Below, piece by piece: positions 38,911 to 56,061 of a stretch of DNA of 64,000 bases (position 1 is the stretch's first letter; the number at the start of each line of letters is the position of its first letter). A program made the translations under genes and the position numbers. The notes below the pieces were generated by a model. The model saw nothing but the letters and a program-made list of their open reading frames with translations, had not been told where the DNA came from and did not search any database. This DNA comes from Desulfovibrionaceae bacterium (GTDB lineage: Bacteria > Desulfobacterota > Desulfovibrionia > Desulfovibrionales > Desulfovibrionaceae): contig OY762289.1 of NCBI GenBank assembly GCA_963665495.1, positions 1,189,909 to 1,253,908 on the forward strand, in the 5' to 3' direction.

Positions 38911-38931
38911 AGGCTATGCTTTTTTTACAAT

Positions 38932-38969
38932 GGAGCCTGTGTTGATACACAGGCTCTGTCAATTTTTTT
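38932..38969 (+). terminator. Rho-independent terminator/attenuator after the pilin genes
   Basis: GGAGCCTGTG-ttgata-CACAGGCTC stem-loop followed by gtcaaTTTTTTT. Sits between flp and the downstream pseudopilin genes. Confidence 0.65.
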
Positions 38970-39084
38970 GTTGTAGTAGAAAAATTAACAATATTCTGTT
39001 TGTAATTACTATTATTTATATGTGAAATAAAAATAAATTTTTACGATGATTACAAAAAATTTTACCGCCTATTTTAGTTAGATA

Positions 39085-39477
39085 ATGAGTAATAAAAGAC
39101 AAAATTCTAAATATGAATCAGGCGCAACAACTGTTGAATTTGCCTTTGCCATGATTTGGGTTTTTTTCTTTTTCATAGCCTACTATCAGATTATTGAGAT
39201 TTTTTTAGTGCACGAACGCGTCTCGTACGCGACTTTTATCGCTTCCCGAGCACATCAGGTGCATGGTGATGCATCCACGGCTGCTGGTGCCGTATTGAAC
39301 GAATATGAAATTAAAACCCGTAAAAAATCCGTTACAATAAGCAAAACCATTCGCGTTCCTATTGATTTCAAAAATCCATTTGACGGTAATGATTTCAGAA
39401 CCGGCGGCGCCAGATTCGAGGTGGCGGAAACGGTTCCCACGTTTTCCGAACCGGGCGAAGGGTCTGGAGATAACTGA
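39085..39477 (+). CDS. TadE-like pseudopilin
   Basis: N-terminus …KYESG/ATTVEFAFAMIWVFFFF… matches the TadE/TadF-type prepilin-like N-terminal domain. Confidence 0.65.
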   Translation: MSNKRQNSKYESGATTVEFAFAMIWVFFFFIAYYQIIEIFLVHERVSYATFIASRAHQVHGDASTAAGAVLNEYEIKTRKKSVTISKTIRVPIDFKNPFDGNDFRTGGARFEVAETVPTFSEPGEGSGDN

Positions 39478-39478
39478 A

Positions 39479-40390: not shown

Positions 40391-40391
40391 C

Positions 40392-40805
40392 ATGTTGCAG
40401 TGCAAAACGATGGATAAATTTGTTTCCAAAAGAGTGGAACGATCAAAAAGCAGTGAAAGCGGCCAGATGATGATAGAGTTTGGTTTTATGCTCTTCATGA
40501 TGCTCGCGCCTATGCTGGTTACTCTTCTTGTTTTCTATGAGGTTATCAATGAACTCATTACCGTTCAGGAGCAGATTTATTACGACCTGCGTGAAAAAAT
40601 TGACGACAGGGCTGCCGGCCCCTTTTTTCCGGTTTACAAAAAAGAGACCGCACGGGTGGAACTGCCAGTCAAAATGCATGGATTTATCGGCGTTGACAAA
40701 GTGGAGGTTGATTTGGAGCTCAGAGCCTTTGCCGGTTGTTGGCAAGGGAACAATTTGAATAGCTATAAATTGGGAAGACGGTTGCGAACAACAGGGATGG
40801 AGTGA
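40392..40805 (+). CDS. TadE-like pseudopilin (second copy)
   Basis: …KSSESG/QMMIEFGFMLFMMLAPMLVTLLVFY… prepilin-like N-terminus. The start (40392 or 40410) is ambiguous. Confidence 0.55.
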   Translation: MLQCKTMDKFVSKRVERSKSSESGQMMIEFGFMLFMMLAPMLVTLLVFYEVINELITVQEQIYYDLREKIDDRAAGPFFPVYKKETARVELPVKMHGFIGVDKVEVDLELRAFAGCWQGNNLNSYKLGRRLRTTGME

Positions 40806-40807
40806 AT

Positions 40808-41671
40808 ATGAAGGGGAGCAGAGTACTGGTCATTTCGCTGGTGGGAGCGCTAATCGCCCTGATGCTGGTCTACGGCTACATCTCCAGCAGGGAAAAAGCC
40901 CTGATGCGCGGAGAGACTCCCATCAAGGTTGTGGTGGCGTTGCGGGACATCCCGGAAGATACGCGTCTGGACGACACCATGGTGGAAGTGCGCGAAGTGC
41001 CCAAGGCCTTTGTGCAGCCTGGCGCGGTGTCCGACGTCACGGACGTCTACGACCGGGTGCTGCAGATAGGAGTGATGTCCGGAGCGCAGATTCTTGAAGA
41101 CATGGTTCGTCCCAGTGAAGGCGAAACCCTTGCTAAGAAGATTCCCAGCGGCATGCGCGCCGTGAGCATTTCCGCCAACGAAGTGACGGCGGTTGCCGGT
41201 TTGATTCAGCCGGGGAACTTTGTGGACGTGCTGCTGACCGTGGAAACCGGCGTTTATGACGAGCGAGGTGTCATGCAGCCCGAGCAGACCATCACAAAAA
41301 CCGTGCTGCAGAATATTCTGGTGCTCGCCGCCAATCAATTTTCATCCAAACGGGATTATCAACGCTCGAAATTCAAAAATACGCAGAAAGTTCCGGGGAC
41401 GTACTATTCCGTACCTTCCGCCAAAGGGGAGGGCGGCAATCAGCTGCGGACATTGACTCTGGCACTGAGTCCTGAAGATGCGCAAAAGATCACTCTGGCG
41501 CAGGAAGTGGGGTCCGTGACCGTGGCGCTACGCAGTTCGTGGTCCGAAGATAAAAGCGTGTCCTTGCCGTTTTTATCCGCAAATCAGCTTATGGGCGTGG
41601 ACAAAAAGATCATGCGCAGATCAATGCCCTCCTGGGTGGAAATTCGCGGATCGCAGATGGTCAACCCCTGA
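40808..41671 (+). CDS. cpaB: Flp pilus assembly protein CpaB/RcpC
   Basis: N-terminal TM, SAF-like domain then RcpC region (…IKVVVALRDIPEDTRLDDTMVEVREVPKAFVQPGAVSD… …GNFVDVLLT…). Confidence 0.8.
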   Translation: MKGSRVLVISLVGALIALMLVYGYISSREKALMRGETPIKVVVALRDIPEDTRLDDTMVEVREVPKAFVQPGAVSDVTDVYDRVLQIGVMSGAQILEDMVRPSEGETLAKKIPSGMRAVSISANEVTAVAGLIQPGNFVDVLLTVETGVYDERGVMQPEQTITKTVLQNILVLAANQFSSKRDYQRSKFKNTQKVPGTYYSVPSAKGEGGNQLRTLTLALSPEDAQKITLAQEVGSVTVALRSSWSEDKSVSLPFLSANQLMGVDKKIMRRSMPSWVEIRGSQMVNP

Positions 41672-41797
41672 GGCCGAACGACAGATATTTTTCACACTGG
41701 ATCGGAAATTCAGGCTTCAAGCCGAAGCCATCGGTACAAGCGGCGGAGCGAGCCGGTTCGGCGGATTCGCTCCAGTAATTCATAAGGGAGACAGGTG

Positions 41798-43300
41798 ATG
41801 CATCGTTCCAAGGGTAGTGGTGTGGCAAGGGTTCTCGCCGTACTTATGCTGGTTCTTTTACTGCCGGTGGCGGCATTCACGCAGAAACCGCCGGACGATG
41901 TCGTCAAAGTCATGGCAGGCAACAGCGTGGTTTATGCCGTGGACTTCAAGATCGAAAAGGTGGCCACCGGCGATCCCAAAGTCTTCGGCGTTGTGCAGAC
42001 CGGCGACAATGAAATGATCATCAATGCTGTTGCCGAGGGTGCGAGCAATCTGATTATTTTCGGCCCTAACGACGAACGCAGGGAAGTGTTCATCAACGTG
42101 CTGACTCCCGAGTTGATGCTCAAAGCCGAAGAACTCCGGGGCATGCTTTCGGATATCGAAGGCGTTGAAGTCAAGATCATCGGCAAGAAAATCATTGTCG
42201 ACGGCCTGGTTTTCAAGAGCAAGGATTTCGGCAAGATCAATCAGCTTCTTGCCAGTATGCCTGAGGTGGTCAACCTCGTACGCATGAGCCCGTTCATGAA
42301 AAAGATCGTGGCCCAGGAGATCGAACGCAGCATCGGGCGTCCGGGCATCACCGTTCGCGTCGCCAAAAACGCCTTTTTGATTGAAGGCGTGGTCCCCAAC
42401 GAAGAAGAAGGACAGCGCGCGGAAAAGATCGCCCTGGCCTACAGCCCCAACGTGGTCAACGCGCTGCTCAGCACCGCCTCGCAGGAACGGCCCGCACCCT
42501 ATTCCAAGCCGAATATCATCGAAGTCAATTTGACTATCATGGAAGTGACCAAGACCGCGTTGAAACAGTTCGGCATCTATTGGAACCCAACCATCTCGAC
42601 CACTGGCAACGCCGGATTCGACCATGAAAGCAACTTCGAGTGGTTCCCTTTCAGCACGTCCATGGCGGAAAATCTGGTCTACAGCCTCTCCGGTACCATT
42701 TCCTCCTTTTTCCCCACCATGCAGCGAATCAATGAAACCGGCAACGGGCGTTCGTTGATGCAGCAGACTCTGATTACCAAGGAGGGCGGGGCGGCCAAAT
42801 TCTTTGCAGGATCCGAAGAGCCCATCCCCGTGGCTCAGGACGGCGGGACCATGTCCGTGGAGTACAAGAAAGTGGGTATGACGCTTAATGTGACGCCCAA
42901 CCTGGACGAACTTGGGAATATCGACTCCATGCTGGAGATGGAGTCCAGCACAGTGACGGGCACCAGCAGCGGTGCGCCCATCGTGAATACCAACAGCGTC
43001 ACCACCGCCATCAATGTGGCTCAGGGCACCACCATCGTCATCGGCGGTCTGGCAGGGCAGCGCGAGCTGAAAAATCTGGCCAACAGCAACCCCAACGACG
43101 AGGGTACCGGAAGCCTGTTTGAAGCCAACTACGACAAAGCGCGCCAGAAAAGCCAGACCGAAGTCGTGGTCTTCATCACGCCGCGTATTGTGGAAGACGC
43201 TAAAGATGCCGGCAAAGACATGAAAGTCAACACCAAGCGCTCGATCAAAAAAGTGGAACTCGACAACCTGCGCGAAGTGTTTGACGGCTATTACAAATAA
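41798..43300 (+). CDS. cpaC: Tad/Cpa secretin CpaC/RcpA (type II/III secretion-system secretin family)
   Basis: Signal peptide. N-terminal β-domains and C-terminal secretin domain (…GTTIVIGGLAGQRELKNLAN… …VVVFITPRIVED…). RBS AAGGGAG 7 nt before ATG 41798. Confidence 0.85.
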   Translation: MHRSKGSGVARVLAVLMLVLLLPVAAFTQKPPDDVVKVMAGNSVVYAVDFKIEKVATGDPKVFGVVQTGDNEMIINAVAEGASNLIIFGPNDERREVFINVLTPELMLKAEELRGMLSDIEGVEVKIIGKKIIVDGLVFKSKDFGKINQLLASMPEVVNLVRMSPFMKKIVAQEIERSIGRPGITVRVAKNAFLIEGVVPNEEEGQRAEKIALAYSPNVVNALLSTASQERPAPYSKPNIIEVNLTIMEVTKTALKQFGIYWNPTISTTGNAGFDHESNFEWFPFSTSMAENLVYSLSGTISSFFPTMQRINETGNGRSLMQQTLITKEGGAAKFFAGSEEPIPVAQDGGTMSVEYKKVGMTLNVTPNLDELGNIDSMLEMESSTVTGTSSGAPIVNTNSVTTAINVAQGTTIVIGGLAGQRELKNLANSNPNDEGTGSLFEANYDKARQKSQTEVVVFITPRIVEDAKDAGKDMKVNTKRSIKKVELDNLREVFDGYYK

Positions 43301-43323
43301 CAGGTCGCGCCGGGGATTGCTTT

Positions 43324-45399
43324 ATGGGGAGAATGCTTAGCGTCTATGCCACCAAGGGTGGCGTCGGCAAAAGCTTTTTGGCAGTGAACCTGGCGGTAAA
43401 CCTGCATTTGGAAACCAGGGAAAATGTGCTGCTCGTTGATTTCGGCCAGCCTTTTTCCATTGATGTGGCAACGTATCTGGAACTCAAAAAGGTCAATACA
43501 CTGGACAAGATGCTCCCGACTGCCATGAAGCTGAATCCGGCAATACTGAAAAGTTTTGTCACCCGCCACGATTCGGGCGTGGATGTCCTGAGCCTGAGCC
43601 AGAGTCTTGCCCCGCTGGGGCCGGAAGTCCTTTCCGCCGGGAATCTGGAGGCCGTGCTCGGCAAGCTCATGCCTTCCTACGGCTGGCTCGTGGCAGATGT
43701 GGGCATGGCCTATGGTCCGGCCGTGGATACGTTGCTTGAGGTCTCGGACCTGGTGATGCTTGTCTGCGAACCCTCAATTCTCGGACTGAAGCATACGTTT
43801 CAGGATCTGGCGTTTCTGCAGGCCCAGAATTTTCCTCAGGAAAAGATCAAGCTGGTCCTGAACAGAGACGGCCTGAATGAAAGCATTTCTGCTGAACTGG
43901 TGCAACAGCGGACCAACAAGGAGGTTTTTGGTTCTCTGCCCAACGATCCGCAGGCCGAACAGAAGCTGGCCGACGGAAAGCTCTATGCCAGGGATTTTCA
44001 CCGTCATGAAGTCACCAAGGCGCTGGACGCCCTGACCGCGCAGGTCGTCCGGAGCGCAGGCGCAATGCAGAACCGCTTGAGCGTGCCCTCTGTCGGGTCC
44101 GAGGAGCAGACCGCCGAACCGGATATCGACGTACTGAAGATGGGCATCCATCAGCGGTTGCTGGAAACTTTTGATATGAAGTACGCGGATTTTGAGGTGG
44201 AAAACGATCCGGAGAAATACAGGGAGCTGGAAGAAGACGTCACCCGCCGGATCGTTGAATTGCTGGATGCGGAATCCCGCATCGCTTCCCGTCAGCGCCG
44301 GGCTGAAATCGTGAAGGAAATCAAGCAGGATGTGCTGGGACTCGGGCCGTTGGAGGACATGCTGGATGATGCGGATGTCAGCGAGATCATGATCAACCGC
44401 TGGGATCAGATTTATGTGGAGCAGAAAGGGCGTCTGAGCGTGAGCCCCAAGAAATTTCACAACGAGCAACACCTGATGCGGGTCATCGAGCGTATCGTGG
44501 CACCGCTGGGCAGGAAAATCGACACCAGTACGCCCATGGTCGACGCCCGGCTCAAGGACGGTTCGCGCGTCAATGCCATCATCCCTCCGCTGGCAATCAA
44601 CGGCGCGGCCATGACCATCCGCAAGTTTCCCAAACACCGGCTGGGTGTGGATGATCTCATCAAATACAATACGCTGAACCGGCAGATAGCTGAATTCATT
44701 CAGGCTGCTGTCAAAGCCCGTTTGAACGTGCTTGTTTCCGGCGGTACGGGTTCGGGAAAAACGACTCTGCTGAATATTCTTTCCGCTTTTATTCCTTCGG
44801 ACGAACGGATCATCACGGTGGAGGATTCGGCCGAGCTGAAGCTGCAGCAGCCCCATGTGGTCACACTGGAATCCAGGCCGCCCAATATCGAGGGCACGGG
44901 CGAGGTTTCCATCAGGGATCTGGTCAAGAATACGCTGCGTATGCGGCCCGACAGAATAGTGGTGGGCGAATGTCGCGGAGCGGAAGCCCTGGATATGCTT
45001 CAGGCCATGAATACGGGGCACGACGGCTCTTTGACCACGGTGCATGCCAATACGTCCCGCGAAGCCATTGCGCGGCTGGAAACGCTGGTCATGTTCGCGG
45101 GGTTCGATCTTTCCCCCAAGGCGATCAAAGAGCAGATCGTGGGCGCGGTGGATCTGATCATCCAGATCAAACGCTTCAAGGATGGAAGCAGACACATCGT
45201 TCAGGTTTCCGAGATTACCGGCATGGAAGGCGATGTGGTCACCATGGGGGATGTTTTCGAGTTCAAGGTATCCGGTACGGATGCCCAGGGGATCGTGCAG
45301 GGGACTTTTGTCTCCACCGGCTACGTGCCCCATTGCCTGAAGGCTTTTGAGGAAAAAGGCATTTCCATACCGAGGGAAATTTTCTGGACGGCGGATTAA
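43324..45399 (+). CDS. Fused TadZ/CpaE-like (ParA/MinD-type) ATPase plus TadA/CpaF secretion ATPase
   Basis: Residues 1-~260: deviant Walker A SVYATKGGVGKSFLAVNLA (MinD/ParA class), no N-terminal receiver-like domain. Residues ~280-691: CpaF-type ATPase (Walker A GGTGSGKTTLLN, …RIVVGECRGAEALDMLQAMNTGHDGSLTTVHANT…). Single uninterrupted ORF. Confidence 0.85.
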   Translation: MGRMLSVYATKGGVGKSFLAVNLAVNLHLETRENVLLVDFGQPFSIDVATYLELKKVNTLDKMLPTAMKLNPAILKSFVTRHDSGVDVLSLSQSLAPLGPEVLSAGNLEAVLGKLMPSYGWLVADVGMAYGPAVDTLLEVSDLVMLVCEPSILGLKHTFQDLAFLQAQNFPQEKIKLVLNRDGLNESISAELVQQRTNKEVFGSLPNDPQAEQKLADGKLYARDFHRHEVTKALDALTAQVVRSAGAMQNRLSVPSVGSEEQTAEPDIDVLKMGIHQRLLETFDMKYADFEVENDPEKYRELEEDVTRRIVELLDAESRIASRQRRAEIVKEIKQDVLGLGPLEDMLDDADVSEIMINRWDQIYVEQKGRLSVSPKKFHNEQHLMRVIERIVAPLGRKIDTSTPMVDARLKDGSRVNAIIPPLAINGAAMTIRKFPKHRLGVDDLIKYNTLNRQIAEFIQAAVKARLNVLVSGGTGSGKTTLLNILSAFIPSDERIITVEDSAELKLQQPHVVTLESRPPNIEGTGEVSIRDLVKNTLRMRPDRIVVGECRGAEALDMLQAMNTGHDGSLTTVHANTSREAIARLETLVMFAGFDLSPKAIKEQIVGAVDLIIQIKRFKDGSRHIVQVSEITGMEGDVVTMGDVFEFKVSGTDAQGIVQGTFVSTGYVPHCLKAFEEKGISIPREIFWTAD

Positions 45400-45427
45400 G
45401 CTGAGGAAGGAAGCGCTTGTGGATAAC

Positions 45428-46663
45428 ATGATGGTATACCTGCTGACGGCCTGTTTTTTGCCGCCGTTCTGGGGCATCTGCTACTGGCTGGCGCAGCTAG
45501 TGCTGGGAGACCGCAAAAAGGACGGGCATGGCAGCTCGTTCGGGCGGTATGTCTCCTGGATCAGTAATACGCTGGACCAGATGTTCTACCAGGTGCCTGA
45601 AAAGAAAATCCGCACTTTTCTGCTGGCGTCCATGCTTGTGGCTGGACTTGCCGGGTTCCTGTTGCCGTCTTCTTTGTCCGGCATCAGCAAGAATTCTCTG
45701 CATACGGCCATGGAGCTGAACCGTAAGGGGCACTACAAGGAAGCGCGGAACGCTTTGCTTGGCTACGAATCGTCGAAATCGCCTCTGATTCTGAACGAAC
45801 TGGGTGTCGCCTTTCTGGGTATGGGAGATTACGACGAGGCCATGGACTATTTCCGGGCGGCGCTCTCCATGCAGCCTTACTACGGCGTGGCCCATGCCAA
45901 TCTGGCAACGGCCTACCTGCACAAGGAAAATCTCGAACGCTGGCGTTTCGAGCGGGCCCGTTCCATAGAAGTGGGCAAATATCCTCTTTCCACCTCCGAA
46001 ATATATAACCTGGAAACATCCATCGTCAGCCAGCTGTTACTGCGTCTGTTCGTGGCCGCGATATTCATGCTGGCCGTCTACAACCTGCCCCGGCTGATCA
46101 TCCGGGTTTTGCGTTCACGCAGGATCAAACGCTACGAAGAACAGATGCCCGACGCTTTGTTGATGGCGTCCAACGGGTTGAAGGCCGGATTCAGTCTGAT
46201 GCAGGCCCTGGAGGTGGTGGCCTCGGAAATGACGCCTCCTTTGAGCCAGGAGTTCCGTCTGGTGCTCAAGGAGCATCAGCTTGGCTCGGAATTGGATGAA
46301 GCTCTCGAACATCTGGCCCAGCGAATGCCTACTTTAGATACGCGTATTTTTGTCAATTCACTCGCCATATTGCGTGAAACCGGCGGTAATCTGACGGAAA
46401 TATTCGACACCATGGCCGAGACCATCAAAGAGCGTAAACGCGTTCTGCAGAAAATCAAAACCATGACAGCCGAAGGAGAAACGCAGGCGTATATTCTTTC
46501 GGCCCTGCCCCTGGTCCTGGGGTTGATCATGTACAAACTCAATCCGGAAAATATGGAGCTGATGTTCGGCACGCCCCTGGGATGGATGATCGTGCTGCTG
46601 GTCGTTTTGCTGGAAGCCGTGGGGATTTTCTGGATGTTGAAAATGGTCAAAGTAAAAGTATAG
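45428..46663 (+). CDS. TadB-like platform protein (T2SSF domain) with an N-terminal TM plus TPR-repeat extension
   Basis: TPR-like repeats (…NELGVAFLGMGDYDEAMDYFRAALSMQPYYGVAHANLATAYLH…) precede a T2SSF domain (…MPDALLMASNGLKAGFSLMQALEVVA… …ETQAYILSALPLVLGL…). An alternative GTG start at 45419 is possible. Confidence 0.75.
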   Translation: MMVYLLTACFLPPFWGICYWLAQLVLGDRKKDGHGSSFGRYVSWISNTLDQMFYQVPEKKIRTFLLASMLVAGLAGFLLPSSLSGISKNSLHTAMELNRKGHYKEARNALLGYESSKSPLILNELGVAFLGMGDYDEAMDYFRAALSMQPYYGVAHANLATAYLHKENLERWRFERARSIEVGKYPLSTSEIYNLETSIVSQLLLRLFVAAIFMLAVYNLPRLIIRVLRSRRIKRYEEQMPDALLMASNGLKAGFSLMQALEVVASEMTPPLSQEFRLVLKEHQLGSELDEALEHLAQRMPTLDTRIFVNSLAILRETGGNLTEIFDTMAETIKERKRVLQKIKTMTAEGETQAYILSALPLVLGLIMYKLNPENMELMFGTPLGWMIVLLVVLLEAVGIFWMLKMVKVKV

Positions 46664-46731
46664 CGGTCGAATTCGCGGACTGCTTTGAGGAAAACTGGAA
46701 AAACGTTTGCCGTGTTGAAAAGGAGATTATT

Positions 46732-47280
46732 ATGGGCTTGCGCGCGCGTCTTGTACTACTGCTTTTTCTTTTTGCCTTGCCGTTGACCACATCATGTTCG
46801 ATGCGCCCCAAAGTGGAAGGGGTGCTTCCCAAAGGCATCGTTCAGGTGGACAAGAACAATTACAACGCCATGGTCTTACGAAGCAAAGGCCCCTGCATGG
46901 TGTTGTTCTATGACGAAGGCATCGAATCCACCGCGTTGCACCGCCTTTACATCGCGTATGCCGACCGCTACGGCAAACACGCCAAATTCTGCCGCTACCA
47001 GTGGGACGGTACCGATAACCCCGGCGATTACCGCCTCGAGGTCCGGCCCACCATCATTTTGTACCGCGACGGCATTGAAGTGGACCGTCTGCGCGGCATT
47101 CCCCCGCGTACGCCCGATTATGTGGACTGGAACGAGGACGTGGAACTCTGGATCCTGCGTACCGCCATTCAGGTAAAAAGCGACAAATACACGGCCACCT
47201 TCAATTGTTTCTTTAACAACACCTATGACCTGGAGTTCACCAATCTGGGCATGGACGATAAACGGGATGTCGAGGATTAG
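46732..47280 (+). CDS. Lipoprotein with a thioredoxin-like fold lacking the CxxC active site
   Basis: Signal peptide + lipobox (LPLTTSC). …CMVLFYDEGIEST… …RPTIILYRDGIEVDRLRG… has thioredoxin-fold topology without redox cysteines. RBS AAGGAG. Confidence 0.55.
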   Translation: MGLRARLVLLLFLFALPLTTSCSMRPKVEGVLPKGIVQVDKNNYNAMVLRSKGPCMVLFYDEGIESTALHRLYIAYADRYGKHAKFCRYQWDGTDNPGDYRLEVRPTIILYRDGIEVDRLRGIPPRTPDYVDWNEDVELWILRTAIQVKSDKYTATFNCFFNNTYDLEFTNLGMDDKRDVED

Positions 47281-47487
47281 ATACTGAGAAGGTATGCTTC
47301 AGGCTGTGTAAGCCCCTGTGTTGTAAAAGAGGACTGAGAATCTCTAACGACTTTAAAGCGTTAGTGAAGACAACAGCTATACAGAGCAATTTGAGCGCGT
47401 CCAGGGCCGCTGCCCTGGCGAGGGGTGTGGGGACGAGGAGCCCCCGCGGTGTTTTCTAATTTTTCAGCTGATCGGGGGAGTCCTGCA

Positions 47488-49209
47488 ATGAACGACGCAC
47501 TTGCCGCCATGAATCAGAAGCTGTTGCGCGCGTTCGAGCTGCGCGGGCTTGTGCCTGCGGGCATGCCGCCGCCAAAGGATCAGCTGCTGTCTGACCTGCT
47601 GGTCAAGACCGGACGCGTCAGCCCGTCCGACGTCAACCAGGTGCTGGAAGAGGTCACGGGGTGTCAGTCCGTGGATCCGACCATGGTTTCCTTCACGCCC
47701 GAATATCTGACTCATGCGCAGGCGCTGATCCCCAAGGCCATCGCTGTAGAAGAAGCCGTATTCCCCATCCGGCACGAACAGAATTTCGTCCACCTGGTTA
47801 TGAGCCGCCCGGAAGATACGCGCTGCCTCAAACGTATGGAATTCCTCACCGGATCGCGGATCAAGCCCTACGCCTGCCACACGGGCCGGATTCTTGAAGC
47901 GCTGGAAACACACTACAGCCCGGATGAAAACTGGCCGGACCCTGAGGCACACAACGAGCAGGCTCTGCTGGACCGCGCGACCAAGGCCGTGAATCTGCTC
48001 AAGGCCAACCTCGCTCCATTGGACGATGTGATCATCAACGTCCATGTCATCAAATTGCTGCGCTATGTTCTCAACGAACTGGTGGACCGTGGATCCAGCG
48101 ATCTGCATTTCGAGCCTCTGGAAGACTGCTACCGTATCCGCTACCGCAAGGACGGCGTGATGGTCACGGCCTGGCGTTTTCCCAATCTGATCAAGGAGGC
48201 GCTGACCGCGCGGTTGAAATTGCTGTCCGGTCTGAAGCTGGACATCACCAGGGCGCCCCAGGACGGCAGCATTGCTTACCACATCATTGAAAACCGCGAG
48301 ATAGACGTACGCGTCAGCACCTTGCCGTCATTGTACGGTGAAAAAATAGTCTTGCGCGTTTTGGATAAAAGCGCCGACCGTCTGAAACTTTCCGACCTGG
48401 GGCTGGAGAAGTGCGACGAAGATCTGTTGTTCGCTTCCATTCGCCGACCCAACGGGTTGTTGCTGGTCACCGGTCCGACAGGCAGCGGAAAGTCCACCAC
48501 GCTGTACGCGGCGTTGACCGAAATGAACAGCGACGAGGTGAATATCGTCACCGCCGAAGATCCGGTGGAGTACAAACTCAACGGTTTGACGCAGGTAAAC
48601 TGTTCGGCCGAGGAGGGCACCAGCTTCAATGCCGTGATCCGTTCTTTCTTACGCCAGGATCCGGACATCATCATGGTGGGCGAAATACGCGACGCCGAGA
48701 CAGCCGATTTTGCGGTAAAGGCCGCCATGACCGGCCACCTCGTGCTTTCCACTTTGCATACCAATGATGCGCCCAGCGCCATCAACCGTCTGGTGAATAT
48801 GGGCCTGCCGCCGTTTCTGGTGGCCTCCGCGCAGATTACCGTAGTGGCGCAGCGCCTTGTCCGCAGGATCTGCGGTAACTGTAAAAGCGCGTATACGCCC
48901 TCGGAAGAAGATCTGCTGCGCGTGCCCGAACTGGCGTCGGAAGCCGCCGACGGGTCTTTGACATTTTTTCGGGGAGACGGTTGCGAACATTGCGCCGGCA
49001 CCGGATATTCCGGACGCGTGGGGGTGTATGAAATTATGCTGGTTACCGACCGGCTGGAAGAAATGATTTTGAATCAGGAATCCTCAGGCGCGCTCAAAAA
49101 CGCCGCGGTGGAGGGAGGAATGCGCCCGCTGCGGCAGGCCGCTTACGATAAACTGCGCCAGGGCGTAACCACCCTGGATGAGGTGTTGCGCGTCACTTTG
49201 GACGCCTGA
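47488..49209 (+). CDS. GspE/PilB-type secretion ATPase with a T2SS-E N-terminal (MshEN-like) domain
   Basis: N-terminal ~190 aa GspE_N-like. Walker A LVTGPTGSGKSTTL, Asp box, Walker B DPDIIMVGEIRD, His box TGHLVLSTLHTNDA. Tetracysteine CGNC…CEHC. RBS GGGGAG 5 nt before ATG 47488. Confidence 0.85.
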   Translation: MNDALAAMNQKLLRAFELRGLVPAGMPPPKDQLLSDLLVKTGRVSPSDVNQVLEEVTGCQSVDPTMVSFTPEYLTHAQALIPKAIAVEEAVFPIRHEQNFVHLVMSRPEDTRCLKRMEFLTGSRIKPYACHTGRILEALETHYSPDENWPDPEAHNEQALLDRATKAVNLLKANLAPLDDVIINVHVIKLLRYVLNELVDRGSSDLHFEPLEDCYRIRYRKDGVMVTAWRFPNLIKEALTARLKLLSGLKLDITRAPQDGSIAYHIIENREIDVRVSTLPSLYGEKIVLRVLDKSADRLKLSDLGLEKCDEDLLFASIRRPNGLLLVTGPTGSGKSTTLYAALTEMNSDEVNIVTAEDPVEYKLNGLTQVNCSAEEGTSFNAVIRSFLRQDPDIIMVGEIRDAETADFAVKAAMTGHLVLSTLHTNDAPSAINRLVNMGLPPFLVASAQITVVAQRLVRRICGNCKSAYTPSEEDLLRVPELASEAADGSLTFFRGDGCEHCAGTGYSGRVGVYEIMLVTDRLEEMILNQESSGALKNAAVEGGMRPLRQAAYDKLRQGVTTLDEVLRVTLDA

Positions 49210-49252
49210 GTAGGGATCTCGCAAAACTGTGTTGCTCTACAAGGAGCGGGGT

Positions 49253-50131
49253 ATGGACCTAGCATTGAAAGCAGGCGGATTGTTGTTGCTGTTTCTCAGC
49301 ATATTCGCGTTTTTGTACGCGCTGTTGCCTGGAGAAAAAGAACAGAAGGCCCGCAAGCAATTTGAAGAAGAGGCTGCGCCTGGCGAATCCACGGGCTTCA
49401 TCAATTTGTTTCGCCCGTTCTTCACTTTTTTTAAACCATTGGCCGTGCGGCTGGCCTGGCCAGGCTATCAACGGCGGATTCAGAAAATGCTGGTCAATGC
49501 GGGGCTGGACCGCGAGCTGAATGTCAGTGATTTTGTCGCCTTTCAATTCCTGTTGCTGGTGCTTTTCGTGCTGATGGGCCTGGTGTTGTGGTATAGCCTT
49601 GGGGCCGCGATTTTCGTGGGGATGCTCGGGCTTGGCTATCCGTATTTCTGGTTGTGGGACAAGAAACGCAATCGTCAGCGGGACATTGCTTTGTCCATGC
49701 CCGACGTGGTGGATATGCTTTCGCTCTCGGTGGAAGCCGGCCTGGATCTGCTGGCGGGCATCAAGCGGATTTGCGATGTGAATGCCACTGCCAGGGATCC
49801 GTTTATTCAGGAACTCGGCTACATGTACCACAACATCAAACTGGGCATGAGCACGGAAGAGGCTTTGAACTCCATGGCCGAGCGGGTGGATGTTCAGGAT
49901 GTCTATTCGTTCACGTCCATTTTGATTCAGGCCCAGAAAATGGGCTCCAGCATCTCGCAGGTACTGAAATCCCAGGCCGTACGAATGCGGCAGCAGCGCT
50001 TCATGAAAGCGGAGCGTGTCGGCGCCGTGGCTTCGCAAAAGCTGCTGATTCCAATGATGCTCTGTATTTTTCCCGTGTTGTTTATTGTGATTTTTGCCCC
50101 GTATTTACTCAAATATATCTATGGCCAATAG
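49253..50131 (+). CDS. tadC: TadC-like platform protein (T2SSF domain)
   Basis: …LSMPDVVDMLSLSVEAGLDLLAGIKRI… …SFTSILIQAQKMGSSISQVLKSQA… T2SSF signatures. RBS AAGGAG 6 nt before ATG 49253. Confidence 0.8.
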   Translation: MDLALKAGGLLLLFLSIFAFLYALLPGEKEQKARKQFEEEAAPGESTGFINLFRPFFTFFKPLAVRLAWPGYQRRIQKMLVNAGLDRELNVSDFVAFQFLLLVLFVLMGLVLWYSLGAAIFVGMLGLGYPYFWLWDKKRNRQRDIALSMPDVVDMLSLSVEAGLDLLAGIKRICDVNATARDPFIQELGYMYHNIKLGMSTEEALNSMAERVDVQDVYSFTSILIQAQKMGSSISQVLKSQAVRMRQQRFMKAERVGAVASQKLLIPMMLCIFPVLFIVIFAPYLLKYIYGQ

Positions 50132-50140
50132 GTGCGGCGC

Positions 50141-51784
50141 ATGAAATGCAGCCTCGAGATACGCAAAGGTGCGGAAACCGTGCTTTCCCGTGAGCTTGTT
50201 CCCGGAGAGTACGCCGTTGGTAGAAAAGACGGAAATGACATTGTGCTTGCCGACAAAAGTATTTCCGGAAAACACGCGGTAATTACTGTCAGCAAGAAAA
50301 AAGTCGTTATTACCGATCCCGGAAGCCGTAACGGCGTTTTGCTTCAGGGGAAACGGATCAAAAAACAGTCCTTTGCCAAGGATTTTTCCGTGCAGCTCGG
50401 ACCTTTTTTGCTGCACTTTGCTCTGGGAGCTGCGGATGCCGGACAACAAACCAGTAAAACCAAAGAGGCCAAAAAGGCCGTACAGGCCTCGAAAAGCCTG
50501 TTCGCCTCGCTTAATCCACGGGTTCTGGTCTGCTGCGTTGTGTTTTGTTTCGCGCTGTTCATGGCAGTGGTTTATTACGCGCCCCTCAAGGCTGCTTTGG
50601 AATCCGGGCGCGAACGCGAGGCTTTGGCGCGCGGCTTTCTCCTGGCCCGCTATCTGGGCGCCGTGAATCAGCTTCCGTTGGAAGAAAAACGCATGGATGT
50701 TCTGCGTACGGATCCGAGCAACACGGAAGAGGGCGTACGCTATGCCTACGTCGTTGACCCCTACGGAAAGGTCCTGGCCCCTGCCCAGGAAATGGGCAAG
50801 TTTCTGAAGCTGCGCAAGATCGACAAGGCTCTGGCGGATCCGAAGTTGCGCGCCTGGGACGGCGATGACGGCGAGCAGATCATTTTTTACCCCATCAAGG
50901 AATTCGACAAGCTGCTGGGTGCGGCCATCATCGGCTATGACCTGGAACGCGCCGTTGCCGTGCAGGGGAGCGGATACGGAGGCACAGCGGCGATGCTGTT
51001 TCTTGTTTCTCTGTTCGTCGCCGGACTGTGCTGTTTCGTGCTGCTACGCGGACTTCTTTCCCCCTTGCGGGCGCTGGCGGAAGATGCGGGCGTCAGCCTG
51101 AAGCAGCGGCAGGACCATGTGGGGTTCAAGGCAGCGTACGCCGAATTGCAGGCTCTGGTGGAAGCCATAAACAGAATGCTTTTGCTGATTGCCAAAACAG
51201 CGGACGCTGTGCCGCCAGTCAGACACGAGGAGACAGCTCCCCCCGCTACTCCTTCGGAAGAACAACCCCCTCCGGATGAAGCTGAATCTCCGCTTGATAT
51301 GGATGCCACAATTATCTCCGACAAAGCACCTGAAAGCTCTGCGCCGCGCGAGTCTGCGGCACCAGAGTTTGTACAAAGTCTGTCGGAGGCTGCGGATATT
51401 GCAGATGCCGGCCCGGCCGGCGATTCCATTGATTTGAGCAGGGAACCGGCCCCTGAAACAGGTGGGGCCGCGAACGTGGGTACGGACATCGGTTCCGTGG
51501 AACTGCCCGCCTGCCACATTGATCTGCAGCTGTATACCATCGTGTCGTTCAATACGGCATTTTGCAGCTTTTTTCCTGTCGGCGAGAAAAAGGAAGGCAT
51601 GCATATGCTCGAGGCGTTTCCTGATCCCGAATTGATCAGCGCTATTTCCACGTTGATTGATGATGCGCAGCTCGAGGCGGAGTCCGTGGTCAGGGGCGAA
51701 CGCGTAATGTGCGTACGCAAGGAAGTCTTGCCGGGGGGCGCATGGACCGCCTTGTTTACTTTTAAGGAGACTGCAGATGGCTGA
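50141..51784 (+). CDS. FHA domain membrane protein: FHA - TM - Cache-like periplasmic domain - TM - HAMP-like region - acidic/Pro-rich linker - C-terminal domain
   Basis: N-terminal FHA (…GRKDGNDIVLADKSISGKHAVI… …GSRNGVLLQG…). TM about aa 130-150. Periplasmic segment with Cache-like …YAYVVDPYGKVLA… …GAAIIGYD… TM about aa 285-310. Begins 1-10 nt after the tadC stop. Confidence 0.75.
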   Translation: MKCSLEIRKGAETVLSRELVPGEYAVGRKDGNDIVLADKSISGKHAVITVSKKKVVITDPGSRNGVLLQGKRIKKQSFAKDFSVQLGPFLLHFALGAADAGQQTSKTKEAKKAVQASKSLFASLNPRVLVCCVVFCFALFMAVVYYAPLKAALESGREREALARGFLLARYLGAVNQLPLEEKRMDVLRTDPSNTEEGVRYAYVVDPYGKVLAPAQEMGKFLKLRKIDKALADPKLRAWDGDDGEQIIFYPIKEFDKLLGAAIIGYDLERAVAVQGSGYGGTAAMLFLVSLFVAGLCCFVLLRGLLSPLRALAEDAGVSLKQRQDHVGFKAAYAELQALVEAINRMLLLIAKTADAVPPVRHEETAPPATPSEEQPPPDEAESPLDMDATIISDKAPESSAPRESAAPEFVQSLSEAADIADAGPAGDSIDLSREPAPETGGAANVGTDIGSVELPACHIDLQLYTIVSFNTAFCSFFPVGEKKEGMHMLEAFPDPELISAISTLIDDAQLEAESVVRGERVMCVRKEVLPGGAWTALFTFKETADG

Positions 51785-52796
51785 TGCCTTTTCCGAAACC
51801 GTCGTCGAGGAAACACCGGGAACGATGACTCTGAAGGTGATTCAAGGCAAAGGCGAAGGGAAAAAATACGCGTTGGCAGAGGGTCGGGGCATGGTCATCG
51901 GCCGGATGCAGGATAGCGATATTCACATTGACCCCGCTGACAAGCTGGCGTCTCGCCACCACGCCCGGATAACGCGTCAGGGAGATGCGGCCCTGCTGGA
52001 AGACCTGGGGAGTGGCAACGGCACTTTTGTGGGGGATGAAAAAATTTCGCAACAGTCATTGCAGCCGGGGGCAGTATTCCGAATCGGCGGCACGACCTTT
52101 GTGCTCGAACTCCAGAGTCCGCAGGAAGCGACCAATGTCACCATGTATCTGGACTCCGAAAAACCAGTCAAAAAAGGCGGCAGCAAAGTCAGGGTGATTT
52201 TGCTGGGGGCGCTGCTGGTCTGCATGCTGGGCGTGCTTTTCATCCTGTTTTCCGGAGACAAGGATCCGGAAAAGGCCGAACAGCAGGTGGAACCGCCGTT
52301 GAAGCAGACGGAGCAGGCCGTACCGGCTGCGGTTCCGACTCCGGCAGCCCAGCCCGCCGGACCAGAACCCGCCGGACCAGAGCCTGCGGCTGCAAAGCAA
52401 GTTGAAACAGAGGCTCCCCAAGAAGCGTCGCCGGACAAGGCTGGCTCTGACGTTTCTGAAATCAGCGGCACGCAAAAAAAAGAGTCGCAGGATCATTTTC
52501 GCCAGGGGAGATTTTTTTATAACACGGGCAATCTGGAAAAGGCCGTGGACGAATGGGATCAGGCCTACAAATTGGATCCGGACAATCAGGCGGCCAAAAA
52601 ATGGCTGCTGCGAGCGGAACAGGAACTGGACGAGCAGATAGACACCCATTACCGGCTCGGATTGAAAGCGAAAAAGTATATGCGCTATACCGACGCGTGC
52701 AATGAATTCAAACTGGTCGTGAAGTGGAGTCGTGACAAAGAGGACGAGCGTTATCTGGACGCGTTGAAGCAACTAGAAGAGTTGAAGGATAAATGA
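51777..52796 (+). CDS. FHA domain membrane protein with a Pro/Ala-rich linker and TPR-like C-terminus
   Basis: FHA (…GRMQDSDIHIDPADKLASRHHARI… …GSGNGTFV…). TM (…VILLGALLVCMLGVLFILF…). RBS AAGGAGA 6 nt before ATG. The start overlaps the upstream stop (ATGGCTGA). Confidence 0.8.
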   Translation: MADAFSETVVEETPGTMTLKVIQGKGEGKKYALAEGRGMVIGRMQDSDIHIDPADKLASRHHARITRQGDAALLEDLGSGNGTFVGDEKISQQSLQPGAVFRIGGTTFVLELQSPQEATNVTMYLDSEKPVKKGGSKVRVILLGALLVCMLGVLFILFSGDKDPEKAEQQVEPPLKQTEQAVPAAVPTPAAQPAGPEPAGPEPAAAKQVETEAPQEASPDKAGSDVSEISGTQKKESQDHFRQGRFFYNTGNLEKAVDEWDQAYKLDPDNQAAKKWLLRAEQELDEQIDTHYRLGLKAKKYMRYTDACNEFKLVVKWSRDKEDERYLDALKQLEELKDK

Positions 52797-52798
52797 TC

Positions 52799-54265
52799 AT
52801 GCCTGAAGAAGAACGAACGCAGCTGCAGCAGACCGGCGAATGGGCCGATTCCACAATGGATTACACCCAGCACGGCTTTCAGGTCGAACAGCAGAATACA
52901 CTGGTTGTCATTGAAGGACCGTCCAGTGGATTGAGCAGATCATTCGGCGACGGCATTCTGGTCGGCCGGCAACCCAATTGCGATTTGCAACTTGATGACA
53001 GCAGCGTATCCCGCGAGCATCTGCGTATTGAGCGTAAGGGTAAAAAGTTGATTGCCAACAACCTGAACAGTAAGAATTTTACGTTGGTAAACGGCAAAAA
53101 AGTTACTACCGCCACACTGCGCGACGGTGATGTCCTGAGCCTGGGCAATTCCAAGCTGCGTCTGAGTCTGAAGGGAGCAGGCGGTGGGAGTGCCGGTTCT
53201 CCTCAAAAGAGCAGCCGCGTACGTATTCTGTTGTTGCTTCTGTTGCTGCTGCTCATGCTGATAGTGCTGTTCGTCGCCCTGGGGTCCAAGGACGATGGAT
53301 CCCGGAAAACTGAGACGTCCGTGCTGGAACAGGAACGCGAAAAAGAGGCCGCAGTCGAGGATGCCAGCGTCAAGCGGGCCATAGCCGTTCATTTGAATAA
53401 CGGAAAGCGCTTCATGGAAGAAGGAAACTACCCGCAGGCGCTGGAGCGATTTGAAGCCGTGCTGCAGCTTGTCGCAAAGCATCCGCAAGCAGAAAAACTG
53501 GCCGCAGAGTGCAGGGAGCGCATTCAGAAAAAACAGCAGGCCGAGGCGAAGAGAGAGCAGGAAGTACTGGAAAGAAAACAAAAAGTGGCGCCAATGCTCA
53601 CGGAGGCCAACGTACTGTACAGTACGAAGGATTACGCAGGTGCGATTTCCGTCTTGAAACAGGCTCTGGAAATATCACCCCACGACCAGGATCTGCAGGA
53701 GTTGCAGGTCAAGGTGCAGGAGGCCTATCAGCTCGAGCAGGATACCCTGAACAAGCAGCAAAAGCGGACTGAGCGAGTTTTGAAGCGTATCCAGAGCAGC
53801 AAGGCCAAGGCCGAGGAATATGAGGCCAAAGGGCAGCATTACCGCGCTCTCAAGGAGTACGAGTTTATTCTGAGCATGAACGCCAAAGGGCCGGAGATTG
53901 AGGCCATAAAAGGCAAGGCTAGCGAACAGCGAAAAATCCTTGAAGAACAGACCCGAAGTGATTTGGAGGCCGGACAACAACTGGCCGAACAGGAAAAATA
54001 TGAAGAAGCCATGCTGGAATGGCGCAAGGTGCTGGAGGTTTATCCGGATCATCCGGGCGCGTTGAGCGCGATGCAGCAACTTCTGCCCACGCTGGAAAAA
54101 AAGGCCAAGGAATTGTATCAGCAGGGGCTGGTTTACGAAGATCTGGGCCAGACCGCCAAGGCGGTGGAAAGTTATGAGCAGGCCATGGAAGTTTTAGAAA
54201 TCAATCCCAAACACGAGTATTATCTCAAATCAAAGAAAAAGTTGAAAGAGCACGGGGCATTGTAG
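52799..54265 (+). CDS. FHA domain membrane protein with a coiled-coil/TPR-rich C-terminal region
   Basis: FHA (…GRQPNCDLQLDDSSVSREHLRI… …NSKNFTLVNG…). Leu-rich TM (…RILLLLLLLLMLIVLFVAL…). Long helical repeat region. The start overlaps the upstream stop. Confidence 0.8.
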   Translation: MPEEERTQLQQTGEWADSTMDYTQHGFQVEQQNTLVVIEGPSSGLSRSFGDGILVGRQPNCDLQLDDSSVSREHLRIERKGKKLIANNLNSKNFTLVNGKKVTTATLRDGDVLSLGNSKLRLSLKGAGGGSAGSPQKSSRVRILLLLLLLLLMLIVLFVALGSKDDGSRKTETSVLEQEREKEAAVEDASVKRAIAVHLNNGKRFMEEGNYPQALERFEAVLQLVAKHPQAEKLAAECRERIQKKQQAEAKREQEVLERKQKVAPMLTEANVLYSTKDYAGAISVLKQALEISPHDQDLQELQVKVQEAYQLEQDTLNKQQKRTERVLKRIQSSKAKAEEYEAKGQHYRALKEYEFILSMNAKGPEIEAIKGKASEQRKILEEQTRSDLEAGQQLAEQEKYEEAMLEWRKVLEVYPDHPGALSAMQQLLPTLEKKAKELYQQGLVYEDLGQTAKAVESYEQAMEVLEINPKHEYYLKSKKKLKEHGAL

Positions 54266-54378: not shown

Positions 54379-56061
54379 TTAGCGCCGCCAGTTGTCCATC
54401 GTACGCCTGCTGTTCAGAAAGGTTATGACCGTGGAACAGCCGTCGCAGAGATTGTTCACTTTGAGCAGAGGAAAACTGTATTCTTTGCTCTGTGCATTCC
54501 AGGACAGGGCGATTTGTTCTTTTGCTGTGACAGGCGTGATGTTTCGTGCGCTTTTCCGCAAGATTTTTCGTAAAATATAGCGGTTGATTATTTCGAATTT
54601 TTTATTTCCATAATTAACTGTAGTATGCAGTAGGCTGTATTTTCTTTCCAGTTCCGTATTGCGCGTGTTGCTGGCCATGAAGTAGATGGAAACTGTTTCT
54701 TTAGGACCGAGAACATAGGGTGTCGTACGGGATGGCAGCACGTATGTCCGGCCTTTAGTAACCGGATTATTCAAATTTTCAGCTTTTGTTAAAAAACCGG
54801 ATGATGGGAAAAGCTGGTTCACATAAAGTTCATTGACAATGGTAAAAATATACACATAACAGTCCTGGTCCGGAGTAAAACATATTTTATAGGTGTCCCT
54901 TGGATTCAATTCCTCATTGTTGCGTAATTTTCTGATGCTTTCGGAGCCATCCGGCTGAAAAAAGTAGTTGAGCTGAAATGAAAGGTTGGCAGGTGTAGCA
55001 TTTTGGGGCTGTCCGGTGGCTGCCGGTTTATCCTGCTGGGAGACGGGGGGCTGGCCGGGGGAGGGACCATAACGCAGCAGAGCCAGGCCGCCGAAGACTG
55101 CCAGTAGAACAAGCGCTGCCGTGAGCGCGGATTTACGAATCATCGAACTGCGACGGGCGTTTTGGGATCTGACGGAGCTGCCCAGCTGCAATTCGCGCAG
55201 GGCGGTGATGATCTCCTGGCAGTTCTGAAAACGGTGCTCAGGAGTTTTATTCATGCAGTTTTCAATGATCTCGTCGAGTTGCACCGGCAGAAGGGGATTG
55301 ATTTTTGAGGGGGGCGCCGGGGCCGAATGCGTAATTTTATAGGCGACGGATGAAAACGTTTCTCCTGAAAAGGCTTTTTCTCCAGTCAGGAAGAGGTAAA
55401 ACACCGCCCCGAGGGAGAAAATATCTGATTGGAGCGTTCCCCGGATACCACCGACCTGTTCGGGAGACATATAGCTCGGCGTACCGATGATCTGTTCCGT
55501 ACGCGTCAATTCGGAATCCTGCGTATGTACGGTGCCGAAATCCATGATCTTGATCACGCCCTGGTGCGTCACCATGATGTTGGTCGGCTTGATGTCTCTG
55601 TGAACGAGTCCGGATTCGTGAATCACATCCAGTCCTTCGCACATCTGAATCATGTATTGCAGTTTTGTCTGCAGCGGAAGTTCCACCGGGGATTTGCACA
55701 GTTCCATGAGCGTCTGGCCTTCCACATACTCCATGGCAATGTACAAGGTGTTTTCATGGCGCCCGATGGCGTATACTTTGATGATGTTGTTGTGGTTTAT
55801 TTTCGCAAGTGATTTGGCTTCTCTGAGAAAACGCTGCACCAGTTGCCTGCGGTTTTCATGGGACATGGATGGCGGCGGCGCATGCAGGGTTTTGATTGCT
55901 GCCAGACGGTCCAGCATGGGGTCCTTGCCCAGATACACAGTCCCCATGCCGCCTTTTCCCAACATGCGGATGATGGTGAATTTACCAATTCTGGGCGGCA
56001 GATCTTGCGTATCGCAGTCGTCTACAAGGACTAGGGTCAGATCATCCTGGCTATCCGGCAC
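54379..56061 (-). CDS. Transmembrane Ser/Thr protein kinase (Hanks-type) with a ~230-aa extracytoplasmic C-terminal domain
   Basis: GxGxxG (LGKGGMGTV), VAIK (LAAIKTL), catalytic loop HRDIKPTNIMV, DFG, SPE. TM at about aa 305-325. RBS GAAGGAGG 6 nt before a GTG start. Confidence 0.85.
   Translation of the reverse strand: MPDSQDDLTLVLVDDCDTQDLPPRIGKFTIIRMLGKGGMGTVYLGKDPMLDRLAAIKTLHAPPPSMSHENRRQLVQRFLREAKSLAKINHNNIIKVYAIGRHENTLYIAMEYVEGQTLMELCKSPVELPLQTKLQYMIQMCEGLDVIHESGLVHRDIKPTNIMVTHQGVIKIMDFGTVHTQDSELTRTEQIIGTPSYMSPEQVGGIRGTLQSDIFSLGAVFYLFLTGEKAFSGETFSSVAYKITHSAPAPPSKINPLLPVQLDEIIENCMNKTPEHRFQNCQEIITALRELQLGSSVRSQNARRSSMIRKSALTAALVLLAVFGGLALLRYGPSPGQPPVSQQDKPAATGQPQNATPANLSFQLNYFFQPDGSESIRKLRNNEELNPRDTYKICFTPDQDCYVYIFTIVNELYVNQLFPSSGFLTKAENLNNPVTKGRTYVLPSRTTPYVLGPKETVSIYFMASNTRNTELERKYSLLHTTVNYGNKKFEIINRYILRKILRKSARNITPVTAKEQIALSWNAQSKEYSFPLLKVNNLCDGCSTVITFLNSRRTMDNWRR

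Follow-up and report, generated by a model that had tools for sequence, protein, structure and literature searches.

Tad pili are the textbook type IV filaments that extend and retract with one bifunctional ATPase, and type IVa pili (T4aP) are the model of two motors sharing one platform. The ATPases concerned have two evolutionary origins, CpaF being archaeal-derived and PilB bacterial. Among Tad-derived machines, the Kil system of Myxococcus xanthus is rich in FHA and TPR proteins and uses the ATPase KilF, an FHA::CpaF protein with an N-terminal FHA domain (PMC8460266). The Tad system of Bdellovibrio bacteriovorus likewise has FHA and TPR neighbours, encodes tadC separately, possesses TadA paralogues and contains TadZA, a TadZ::TadA fusion whose architecture was called atypical (bioRxiv 10.64898/2026.07.08.737194). 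Here we describe a 64,000-nucleotide window from a Desulfovibrionaceae bacterium (GenBank assembly GCA_963665495.1, contig OY762289.1, positions 1,189,909 to 1,253,908), in which a Tad/Flp operon encodes a TadZ::CpaF fusion together with a second traffic ATPase of the PilB/GspE class, referred to below as the PilB-like ATPase. We consider it very probable that this enzyme is an integral component of the Tad-type machine. With its conserved gene content the locus departs from the view of Tad pili as single-motor machines, which suggests a hitherto undescribed version with two ATPases. No description of a PilB-class ATPase inside a Tad locus was found in the full-text literature, in which most subscription journals are not covered, so that the novelty is unproven.

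The PilB-like ATPase (47488–49209, forward strand; 573 amino acids) was characterized with Pfam, NCBIfam, matches to solved structures, an AlphaFold2 model and alignments. It contains an N-terminal domain of the GSPII/MshEN fold (approximately residues 1–145), an N2 domain and a C-terminal ATPase domain with a tetracysteine zinc site. In Pfam it matches T2SSE (PF00437) with 401 bits and MshEN (PF05157) with 42.6 bits, against a cut-off of 23.1. The nearest NCBIfam model is PilB (TIGR02538, 553.7 bits), with GspE (TIGR02533) at 493.9 bits; both scores are under the respective equivalog cut-offs of 675.65 and 630.25, and no clade-specific model is among the NCBIfam matches of the protein. By sequence, the nearest solved proteins are Geobacter PilB (E-value 1e-121) and Myxococcus PilB (1e-116), followed by Thermus PilF and Vibrio GspE (1e-103 for the latter). 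The AlphaFold2 model, built from 63 homologues, has a mean predicted local distance difference test score of 91.8, and Foldseek matched it to 5tsh, 5zfr and 5oiu at target TM-scores of 0.86–0.95. The core of the model compares with Geobacter PilB at a TM-score of ~0.9 and 47–48% identity, the identity range being 42–48% when Thermus PilF is included.

The best 94 matches in a database search (44–94% identity) were taken as clade homologues. In 93 of them we assessed the catalytic motifs: Walker A (VTGPTGSGKSTT), the Asp box (VTAEDPVEY), Walker B (DPDIIMVGEIRD) and the His box (TGHLVLSTLHTN) are 89–100% conserved, and the four zinc-site cysteines (CGNC...CEHC) are 100% conserved. The initial annotation had recognized here a full GspE-type enzyme with these boxes, the tetracysteine motif and an MshEN-type N-terminal domain, and Pfam, NCBIfam, the motifs and the structural model all bear this out. 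As judged from its sequence, the protein is a PilB/GspE-class traffic ATPase with intact catalytic and zinc motifs, and the best explanation of these features is an enzyme predicted to be catalytically competent, zinc-binding and hexameric. The mechanically called open reading frame (ORF) extends over 47425–49209 on the forward strand and opens with GTG at 47425. Since a Shine-Dalgarno sequence (GGGGGAG) lies 7 nucleotides upstream of the ATG at 47488 and every close homologue has its N-terminus at the corresponding methionine, this ATG is the likely true start. The base composition of the gene is that of its neighbours, with the GC content (guanine plus cytosine) even across 44–52 kb. A recent horizontal insertion was considered and, because of this uniformity, judged unlikely.

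That a CpaF-type ATPase is also present in the locus, as initially annotated, was corroborated. The gene at 43324–45399 (forward strand) encodes a 691-amino-acid fusion of a ParA/MinD-like TadZ with CpaF/TadA, detected by Pfam as CbiA/AAA_31 plus T2SSE. The TadZ part has the Walker A motif KGGVGKS, and the CpaF part, which scores 396 bits to Caulobacter CpaF (8rkd), keeps Walker A (GGTGSGKTT), Walker B (GECRG) and the His box (TGHDGS...HAN). Because the catalytic boxes are kept in both the CpaF module and the PilB-like enzyme, the locus appears to hold two active traffic ATPases of different classes, in place of the single bifunctional CpaF/TadA motor that characterizes Tad systems. The TadZ::CpaF fusion is widespread in Desulfobacterota-like genomes, and 703-amino-acid versions occur in Acidobacteriota-like genomes. 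Long antisense ORFs overlie both ATPase genes (43774–45477, 47464–48282 and 48276–49001, all on the reverse strand); we take them as by-products of GC-rich coding sequence and not as genes.

In the window, the PilB-like gene lies between a lipoprotein gene (46732–47280) and tadC (49229–50131), the position given in the initial annotation, and the same arrangement recurs in related genomes. The best 94 matches come from genomes or metagenome-assembled genomes (MAGs) of Desulfovibrionaceae, Solidesulfovibrio, Desulfolutivibrio, Desulfonatronovibrio, Desulfobacteraceae, Desulfosalsimonadaceae and Desulfococcaceae; the genome nearest to the window is a Desulfovibrionaceae MAG. We scored 17 further distinct, Desulfobacterota-like clade loci with the window proteins, taking as denominators the loci that could be judged. 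The context evidence comes mostly from exact-protein look-ups, and a scan with a six-sequence alignment of the N-terminal domain yielded eight genome and two metagenome loci. The conserved block consists of the lipoprotein, the PilB-like ATPase and TadC, then three FHA proteins and usually a Ser/Thr kinase, with TadZ::CpaF and TadB upstream. The lipoprotein gene directly precedes the PilB-like gene in 17/17 loci, TadC directly follows it in 16/16, three FHA genes lie downstream in 14/15, and TadZ::CpaF is found within 10 kb upstream in 12/13. None of the 17 loci displays a partnership with PilT, PilC or PilM. In one of them (L012), the segment from the lipoprotein through the PilB-like ATPase, TadC and the three FHA proteins to the kinase forms its own operon, divergent from the secretin, TadZA and TadB genes. 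The most divergent clade member (L019) retains the lipoprotein, PilB-like and TadC genes; genes for four small proteins and one TPR protein come next, then flp, after which the contig ends.

The same association extends to a sister group of 600–612-amino-acid proteins in Acidobacteriota-like loci, with one cluster member labelled Terriglobia. These proteins share with the clade the N-domain signature LEE[VI][ST]G...DP, and their genes are arranged in a different order, TadZA–TadB–x–TadC–(DUF192)–three FHA–PilB-like–TPR. A second sister-group locus was reached independently, from a TadZ::CpaF homologue at 48% identity. Two controls gave the expected picture: the canonical Deferribacter PilB gene (L021) is adjoined by PilT and PilC, and no PilB-like gene occurs in a canonical Tad locus in which TadZ is separate and FHA genes are absent.

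In an unrooted neighbour-joining tree of 122 sequences, the canonical proteins (PilBs, Escherichia coli GspE and HofB) were separated from the rest in 50/50 bootstraps, as was the clade from everything else. The PilB-like ATPase thus falls on its own branch, apart from PilB, GspE and HofB. Since this tree is unrooted, it defines three groups and not their order. In a tree rooted with PilT, based on 329 core columns shared with this outgroup, the clade and the sister group were joined in 48/100 bootstraps and both alternative groupings were obtained in 0/100. A further tree, rooted with the CpaF domain of the window, placed the root inside the clade beside its most divergent member and was discarded as a case of long-branch attraction. 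Pairwise identity of the window protein is 47% to canonical PilB and 43–44% to the sister group, and full-length scores pass without a break from the clade members to the canonical PilBs. When a profile of the clade N-terminal domain was compared with 1.84 billion cluster representatives, 16 proteins matched at E ≤ 1e-30, about nine of them over the whole domain; on this count the PilB-like family is rare.

The N-terminal domain has the MshEN/GSPII fold, for which the initial annotation raised, as a speculation, control by cyclic di-GMP (c-di-GMP). The c-di-GMP-binding motif consists of two tandem 24-residue stretches, RLGxx(L/V/I)(L/V/I)xxG(L/V/I)(L/V/I)xxxxLxxxLxxQ, for which a relaxed pattern is also available (Wang et al. 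2016, PMC5013675). We found no match to either version of the motif, strict or relaxed, in the window protein or among the 94 clade homologues, and the same search found the relaxed motif in 20 of the 23 canonical PilBs among those listed. In motif II of the clade, L-[LI]-[ST] and then an invariant Asp stand in place of RLG, and Val or Ile in place of the terminal Gln. In the AlphaFold2 model, the motif I region has a single long helix with a 15-residue loop in place of the first helix pair. Three polar residues, N9, D36 and N50 (encoded within 47488–47700), are invariant and specific to the clade. They sit on the three N-terminal helices, at positions occupied by the c-di-GMP motif in canonical MshEN domains, and may mark a new protein interface or a different ligand site. 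Given the absence of the motif from the window protein and the 94 clade homologues, canonical c-di-GMP control of the PilB-like ATPase appears unlikely, and the N-terminal domain, having lost the c-di-GMP pocket, probably functions in docking to other proteins. An Rfam search of the window and of the region upstream of flp gave no riboswitch, not even one of the c-di-GMP classes.

Downstream of TadC, on the forward strand, three genes encode membrane-anchored FHA proteins in which the phosphothreonine-binding residues (GR/SxxH/NG) are intact. The protein at 50132–51784 has an N-terminal FHA domain (Pfam FHA/Yop-YscD_cpl), two transmembrane segments and a C-terminal part; those at 51777–52796 and 52793–54265 each combine, according to Pfam and transmembrane prediction, an N-terminal FHA domain, one transmembrane segment and TPR. 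They are followed on the reverse strand by a Hanks-type Ser/Thr kinase (54379–56061; Pfam Pkinase, 173 bits) with a transmembrane segment and an extracytoplasmic DUF4384 domain. Its catalytic motifs (HRDIKPTN, DFG and SPE) are intact, and most related loci likewise carry a kinase gene together with the module. A dCache-HAMP-SpoIIE phosphatase of the PP2C type, recognized by Pfam and also encoded on the reverse strand (57594–59732), is a possible counterpart of the kinase; PP2C genes come after the module in three further loci (L004, L015 and L020).

The genes at 38653–54265 form a single co-directional Tad/Flp operon on the forward strand, and all Tad core parts (Flp prepilin, TadE/F-type proteins, RcpC, RcpA secretin, TadZ, CpaF/TadA, TadB and TadC) were identified within 38653–50131. 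The operon starts with an 85-amino-acid Flp prepilin (38653–38910; Pfam Flp_Fap, 38 bits), in which the cleavage motif G/ATTVEY was read from the sequence. Directly 3' of flp, at 38930–38959, a 13-bp GC-rich hairpin is followed by a T-run. This terminator- or attenuator-like element would be typical of an attenuator keeping pilin transcripts above those of the machine components. A TadE/TadF-like pseudopilin of 130 amino acids with the motif G/ATTVEF (39085–39477) is kept in L001, L004, L006, L007 and L013. It is followed by a TadE/G-like protein (PF13400; 39362–40390; Pfam Tad, 42.5 bits), whose real start is probably internal at ~39482, and a small pseudopilin-like protein (40221–40805), identified by a hydrophobic segment after ...SG/QMMIEF and also probably starting internally; orthologues of 109–137 amino acids are called in L001, L004 and L013. 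RcpC/CpaB (40802–41671; Pfam RcpC, 98.6 bits, and SAF) and a Tad-type secretin, RcpA/CpaC (41795–43300; Pfam Secretin, T2SS-T3SS_pil_N and BON), precede TadZ::CpaF.

The platform is split. The TadB-like protein (45347–46663) has a transmembrane segment and a TPR region, then one T2SSF domain (Pfam, 64 bits), and the TadC-like protein (300 amino acids, three transmembrane segments) also has one T2SSF domain (57.9 bits). Neither resembles E. coli GspF, E. coli HofC or Deferribacter PilC to a meaningful degree. Sequence comparison gave a weak match of the TadB-like protein to PilC (E-value 7.5e-4); against solved structures, sequence searches gave no match for TadC, and for TadB only TPR matches and a non-significant PilC match (E-value 0.046). 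The lipoprotein between TadB and the PilB-like ATPase has a thioredoxin fold without CxxC, indicated by weak Thioredoxin matches, and a lipobox (LTTSC) that is present in 7/7 orthologues; it may act as a pilotin or as an adaptor in the periplasm. The proposal in the initial annotation of a chimeric Tad/T4a-like machine agrees with the conserved gene content and is right in a narrow sense, since only the ATPase is T4a-like, whereas the pilins, secretin, RcpC and split TadB/TadC are all Tad-type.

Beyond the operon, we scanned all ORFs of at least 150 amino acids in 1–39500 and the ORFs flanking the operon up to 60.7 kb. No partner genes of T4aP or of type II secretion systems (T2SS), namely PilT, PilC, PilM or gsp, were found among the scanned ORFs, and the remaining large ones have unrelated functions. 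An A24 prepilin peptidase (TadV/CpaA) was not found among them either and may be encoded elsewhere; the tad loci of Bdellovibrio are also without a canonical TadV (bioRxiv 10.64898/2026.07.08.737194). The GC content falls to 0.36–0.43 in 36000–40000, compared with ~0.55 in the flanks. This stretch takes in flp, the minor pilin genes and a 455-amino-acid ORF (36531–37898) with multiple transmembrane segments and no Pfam match, which is also found upstream of flp in L001.

Several related loci carry additional genes. L002, L013, L014, L015 and L020 encode a 355–397-amino-acid protein between tadB and the lipoprotein gene, with weak transglutaminase-core matches in L014 and L015 only; all of these loci except L013 also have in this position a protein of 1150–1270 amino acids that lacks any Pfam domain. 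L002, L013 and L014 encode, on the downstream side of the kinase, a caspase-like Peptidase_C14 and a CsgG protein, in L002 and L013 together with a GNA1162-like lipoprotein. L015 has Peptidase_C14 at the contig end, and L020 has no Peptidase_C14, CsgG or GNA1162-like gene. None of these transglutaminase-like, 1150–1270-amino-acid, Peptidase_C14, CsgG and GNA1162-like genes is present in the window. One 7.36-Mb contig carries two paralogues each of the PilB-like ATPase (P0019 and P0036) and of TadZ::CpaF (P0345 and P0346), which suggests that the entire system was duplicated. L023 (10001–14146) exemplifies another way for a Tad system to have multiple ATPases: in this canonical Tad locus TadZ is a separate REC-ParA protein, and a 937-amino-acid protein carrying two T2SSE domains in tandem is followed by a further CpaF of 442 amino acids.

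We propose that a hexamer of the PilB-like ATPase would dock as a second motor under the TadB/TadC platform. Judging from its membership of the extension-ATPase family, it would most likely polymerize Flp and thereby drive extension, and TadZ::CpaF would supply the opposing activity (retraction), position the machine, or both. The engagement of the motor would be set by threonine phosphorylation, which the kinase would write, the cytoplasmic FHA domains read and the PP2C phosphatase erase. We infer the motor role for the Flp pilus, its direction, the platform partner and the phospho-gating alike. A division of labour between the two ATPases in extension and retraction is plausible, and for the specific mechanism of a phospho-gated second motor on TadB/TadC we regard the case as evenly balanced. 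TadZ::CpaF, the split TadB/TadC, the three membrane FHA proteins, the Hanks kinase with PP2C and the PilB-like enzyme are best explained as the features that define a distinct lineage of Tad/Flp (type IVc) pilus machines, of which the PilB-like enzyme is a constant part. A more tentative idea, which we consider on the whole somewhat doubtful, is that this Tad lineage of Desulfobacterota and Acidobacteriota evolved a T4a-like two-motor logic independently, by capturing a PilB-family extension ATPase that shares the split TadB/TadC with TadZ::CpaF, the choice of motor depending on a transmembrane Ser/Thr-kinase/FHA circuit instead of c-di-GMP.

Several points weigh against a second motor in this machine. 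PilB-class enzymes are usually paired with two-domain PilC/GspF platforms, and TadB and TadC resemble neither. In L019, neither FHA genes nor TadZ::CpaF were seen in the 10 kb upstream; on this early-ending contig, the locus is possibly a Tad-like system with the PilB-like enzyme as its sole motor. A single capture event of the Tad-associated PilB-like proteins is favoured by the rooted tree with weak core-domain support (48/100). No promoter-like or terminator-like site was found in the 207-bp gap between the lipoprotein and PilB-like genes (47281–47487), where co-transcription is assumed; an RNA-fold check of the gap revealed nothing distinctive (z-score -0.05) and neither supports nor excludes a separate transcript. 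In Caulobacter, CpaF alone is reported to power both extension and retraction (PMC11300603, PMC12019362), so that a second motor is not required in principle. A single ATPase is described for Kil (PMC8460266), and for Bdellovibrio the paralogous TadA-type ATPases tadA2 and tadA3 are reported (bioRxiv 10.64898/2026.07.08.737194); neither of these published accounts mentions a PilB-class ATPase.

The PilB-like ATPase could also work within the machine at another task, either priming a tip complex of minor pilins (TadE/F/G-like) or driving a T2SS-like secretion of large accessory proteins. GspE relatives power pseudopilus-based secretion, as is established for T2SS, and such a task would suit the many related loci with transglutaminase-like and 1150–1270-amino-acid proteins between tadB and the lipoprotein gene, as well as L019, where the triad of lipoprotein, PilB-like ATPase and TadC leads directly to four small proteins and flp. 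However, the window and its nearest relatives, L001 and L006, keep the ATPase without large accessory genes, and no sequence feature sets such a task apart from a general motor role; we regard it as rather unlikely. A regulatory or scaffolding ATPase that moves no pilin and acts, like TadZ or FlaH, as a checkpoint recruiting or releasing TadZ::CpaF would account for the constant linkage to signalling genes (three FHA genes, kinase and PP2C) and for an N-terminal domain of docking-type GSPII fold without the ligand motif. It is distinctly improbable in view of the strong conservation of all motor-type catalytic boxes and the zinc site, and of the close match to genuine extension motors in both sequence and fold.

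Binding of c-di-GMP to the MshEN-like domain might activate the ATPase, as in MshE or Myxococcus PilB. The fold itself is present, but the motif kept in most of the listed canonical PilBs is missing throughout the clade, and even GSPII-A of PilF, which deviates less from the motif, does not bind this nucleotide (PMC12002112), making this switch very unlikely. The remaining alternative, an ordinary orphan T4aP or T2SS ATPase that lies in the tad operon by chance and has its partners elsewhere, draws on the identity to canonical PilB, which is as high as that to the sister group, and on the continuity of full-length scores. It is contradicted by the conserved synteny, with the neighbourhood kept in all loci examined and across two phyla, by the separate branch with its clade-specific N-domain residues, and by the lack of T4aP/T2SS genes among the scanned window ORFs. 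The initial annotation had named such an orphan as the case against its own proposal; as the synteny holds in 17 loci and the association extends to a sister group from another phylum, we consider it extremely unlikely.

The retention of a PilB-class ATPase in a conserved Tad lineage raises the question whether CpaF- and PilB-type motors can share one split platform, how their exchange would be controlled, and whether the one-motor state was dropped when tighter control was needed. With the FHA, kinase and phosphatase genes the system has a switch that is amenable to genetics, and ATPase mutants, single and double, are feasible in cultured carriers such as Desulfolutivibrio sulfoxidireducens and Desulfonatronovibrio magnus. 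Clade members are labelled PilB, GspE/PulE or TadA in databases, so that the system escapes tools for the classification of type IV filament systems.

In comparison with known systems, the signalling genes recall PpkA-Fha1-PppA of the Pseudomonas type VI secretion system (T6SS), in which a Hanks kinase with an extracytoplasmic domain, an FHA protein and a PP2C phosphatase are also encoded beside a machine with a hexameric ATPase. The T6SS is a different machine with one soluble FHA protein, as opposed to three membrane-anchored ones, and the likeness would be one of functional analogy only. The PpkA-Fha1 comparison has been drawn for the FHA-rich Kil system as well (PMC8460266). With Kil and the Bdellovibrio system, its nearest relatives among those described, the window shares the character of a Tad-derived machine rich in FHA and TPR proteins, its own three FHA proteins occupying 50132–54265; going by the published descriptions, its ATPase is TadZ::CpaF as in Bdellovibrio and not FHA::CpaF as in Kil. 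The Desulfovibrionaceae-like and Acidobacteriota-like carriers, in contrast to the organisms of these two systems, are not known to be predatory. The PilB proteins of T4aP (Geobacter, Myxococcus, Thermus PilF) have in common with the window enzyme the GSPII N-terminal domain, N2 and the ATPase domain with its tetracysteine site. They differ from it in that the window enzyme stays under the PilB and GspE equivalog cut-offs, has no PilT, PilC or PilM gene nearby and lacks the c-di-GMP motif. A similar difference separates it from MshE and other MshEN receptor domains, which carry the tandem 24-residue motifs that are missing here, where the first helix pair is replaced. With the Tad/Flp (type IVc) systems of Caulobacter (Cpa) and Aggregatibacter (Tad), the locus shares Flp with the G/xxxxEY motif, TadE/F/G-like proteins, RcpC/CpaB, the secretin, TadZ and CpaF modules, the split TadB/TadC and the usual gene order. 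Where canonical Tad systems have one bifunctional ATPase, according to the two reports on Caulobacter (PMC11300603, PMC12019362), the window adds one of the PilB class; it also differs from them in the fusion of TadZ to CpaF, the TPR region of TadB and the attachment of three FHA membrane proteins and a kinase.

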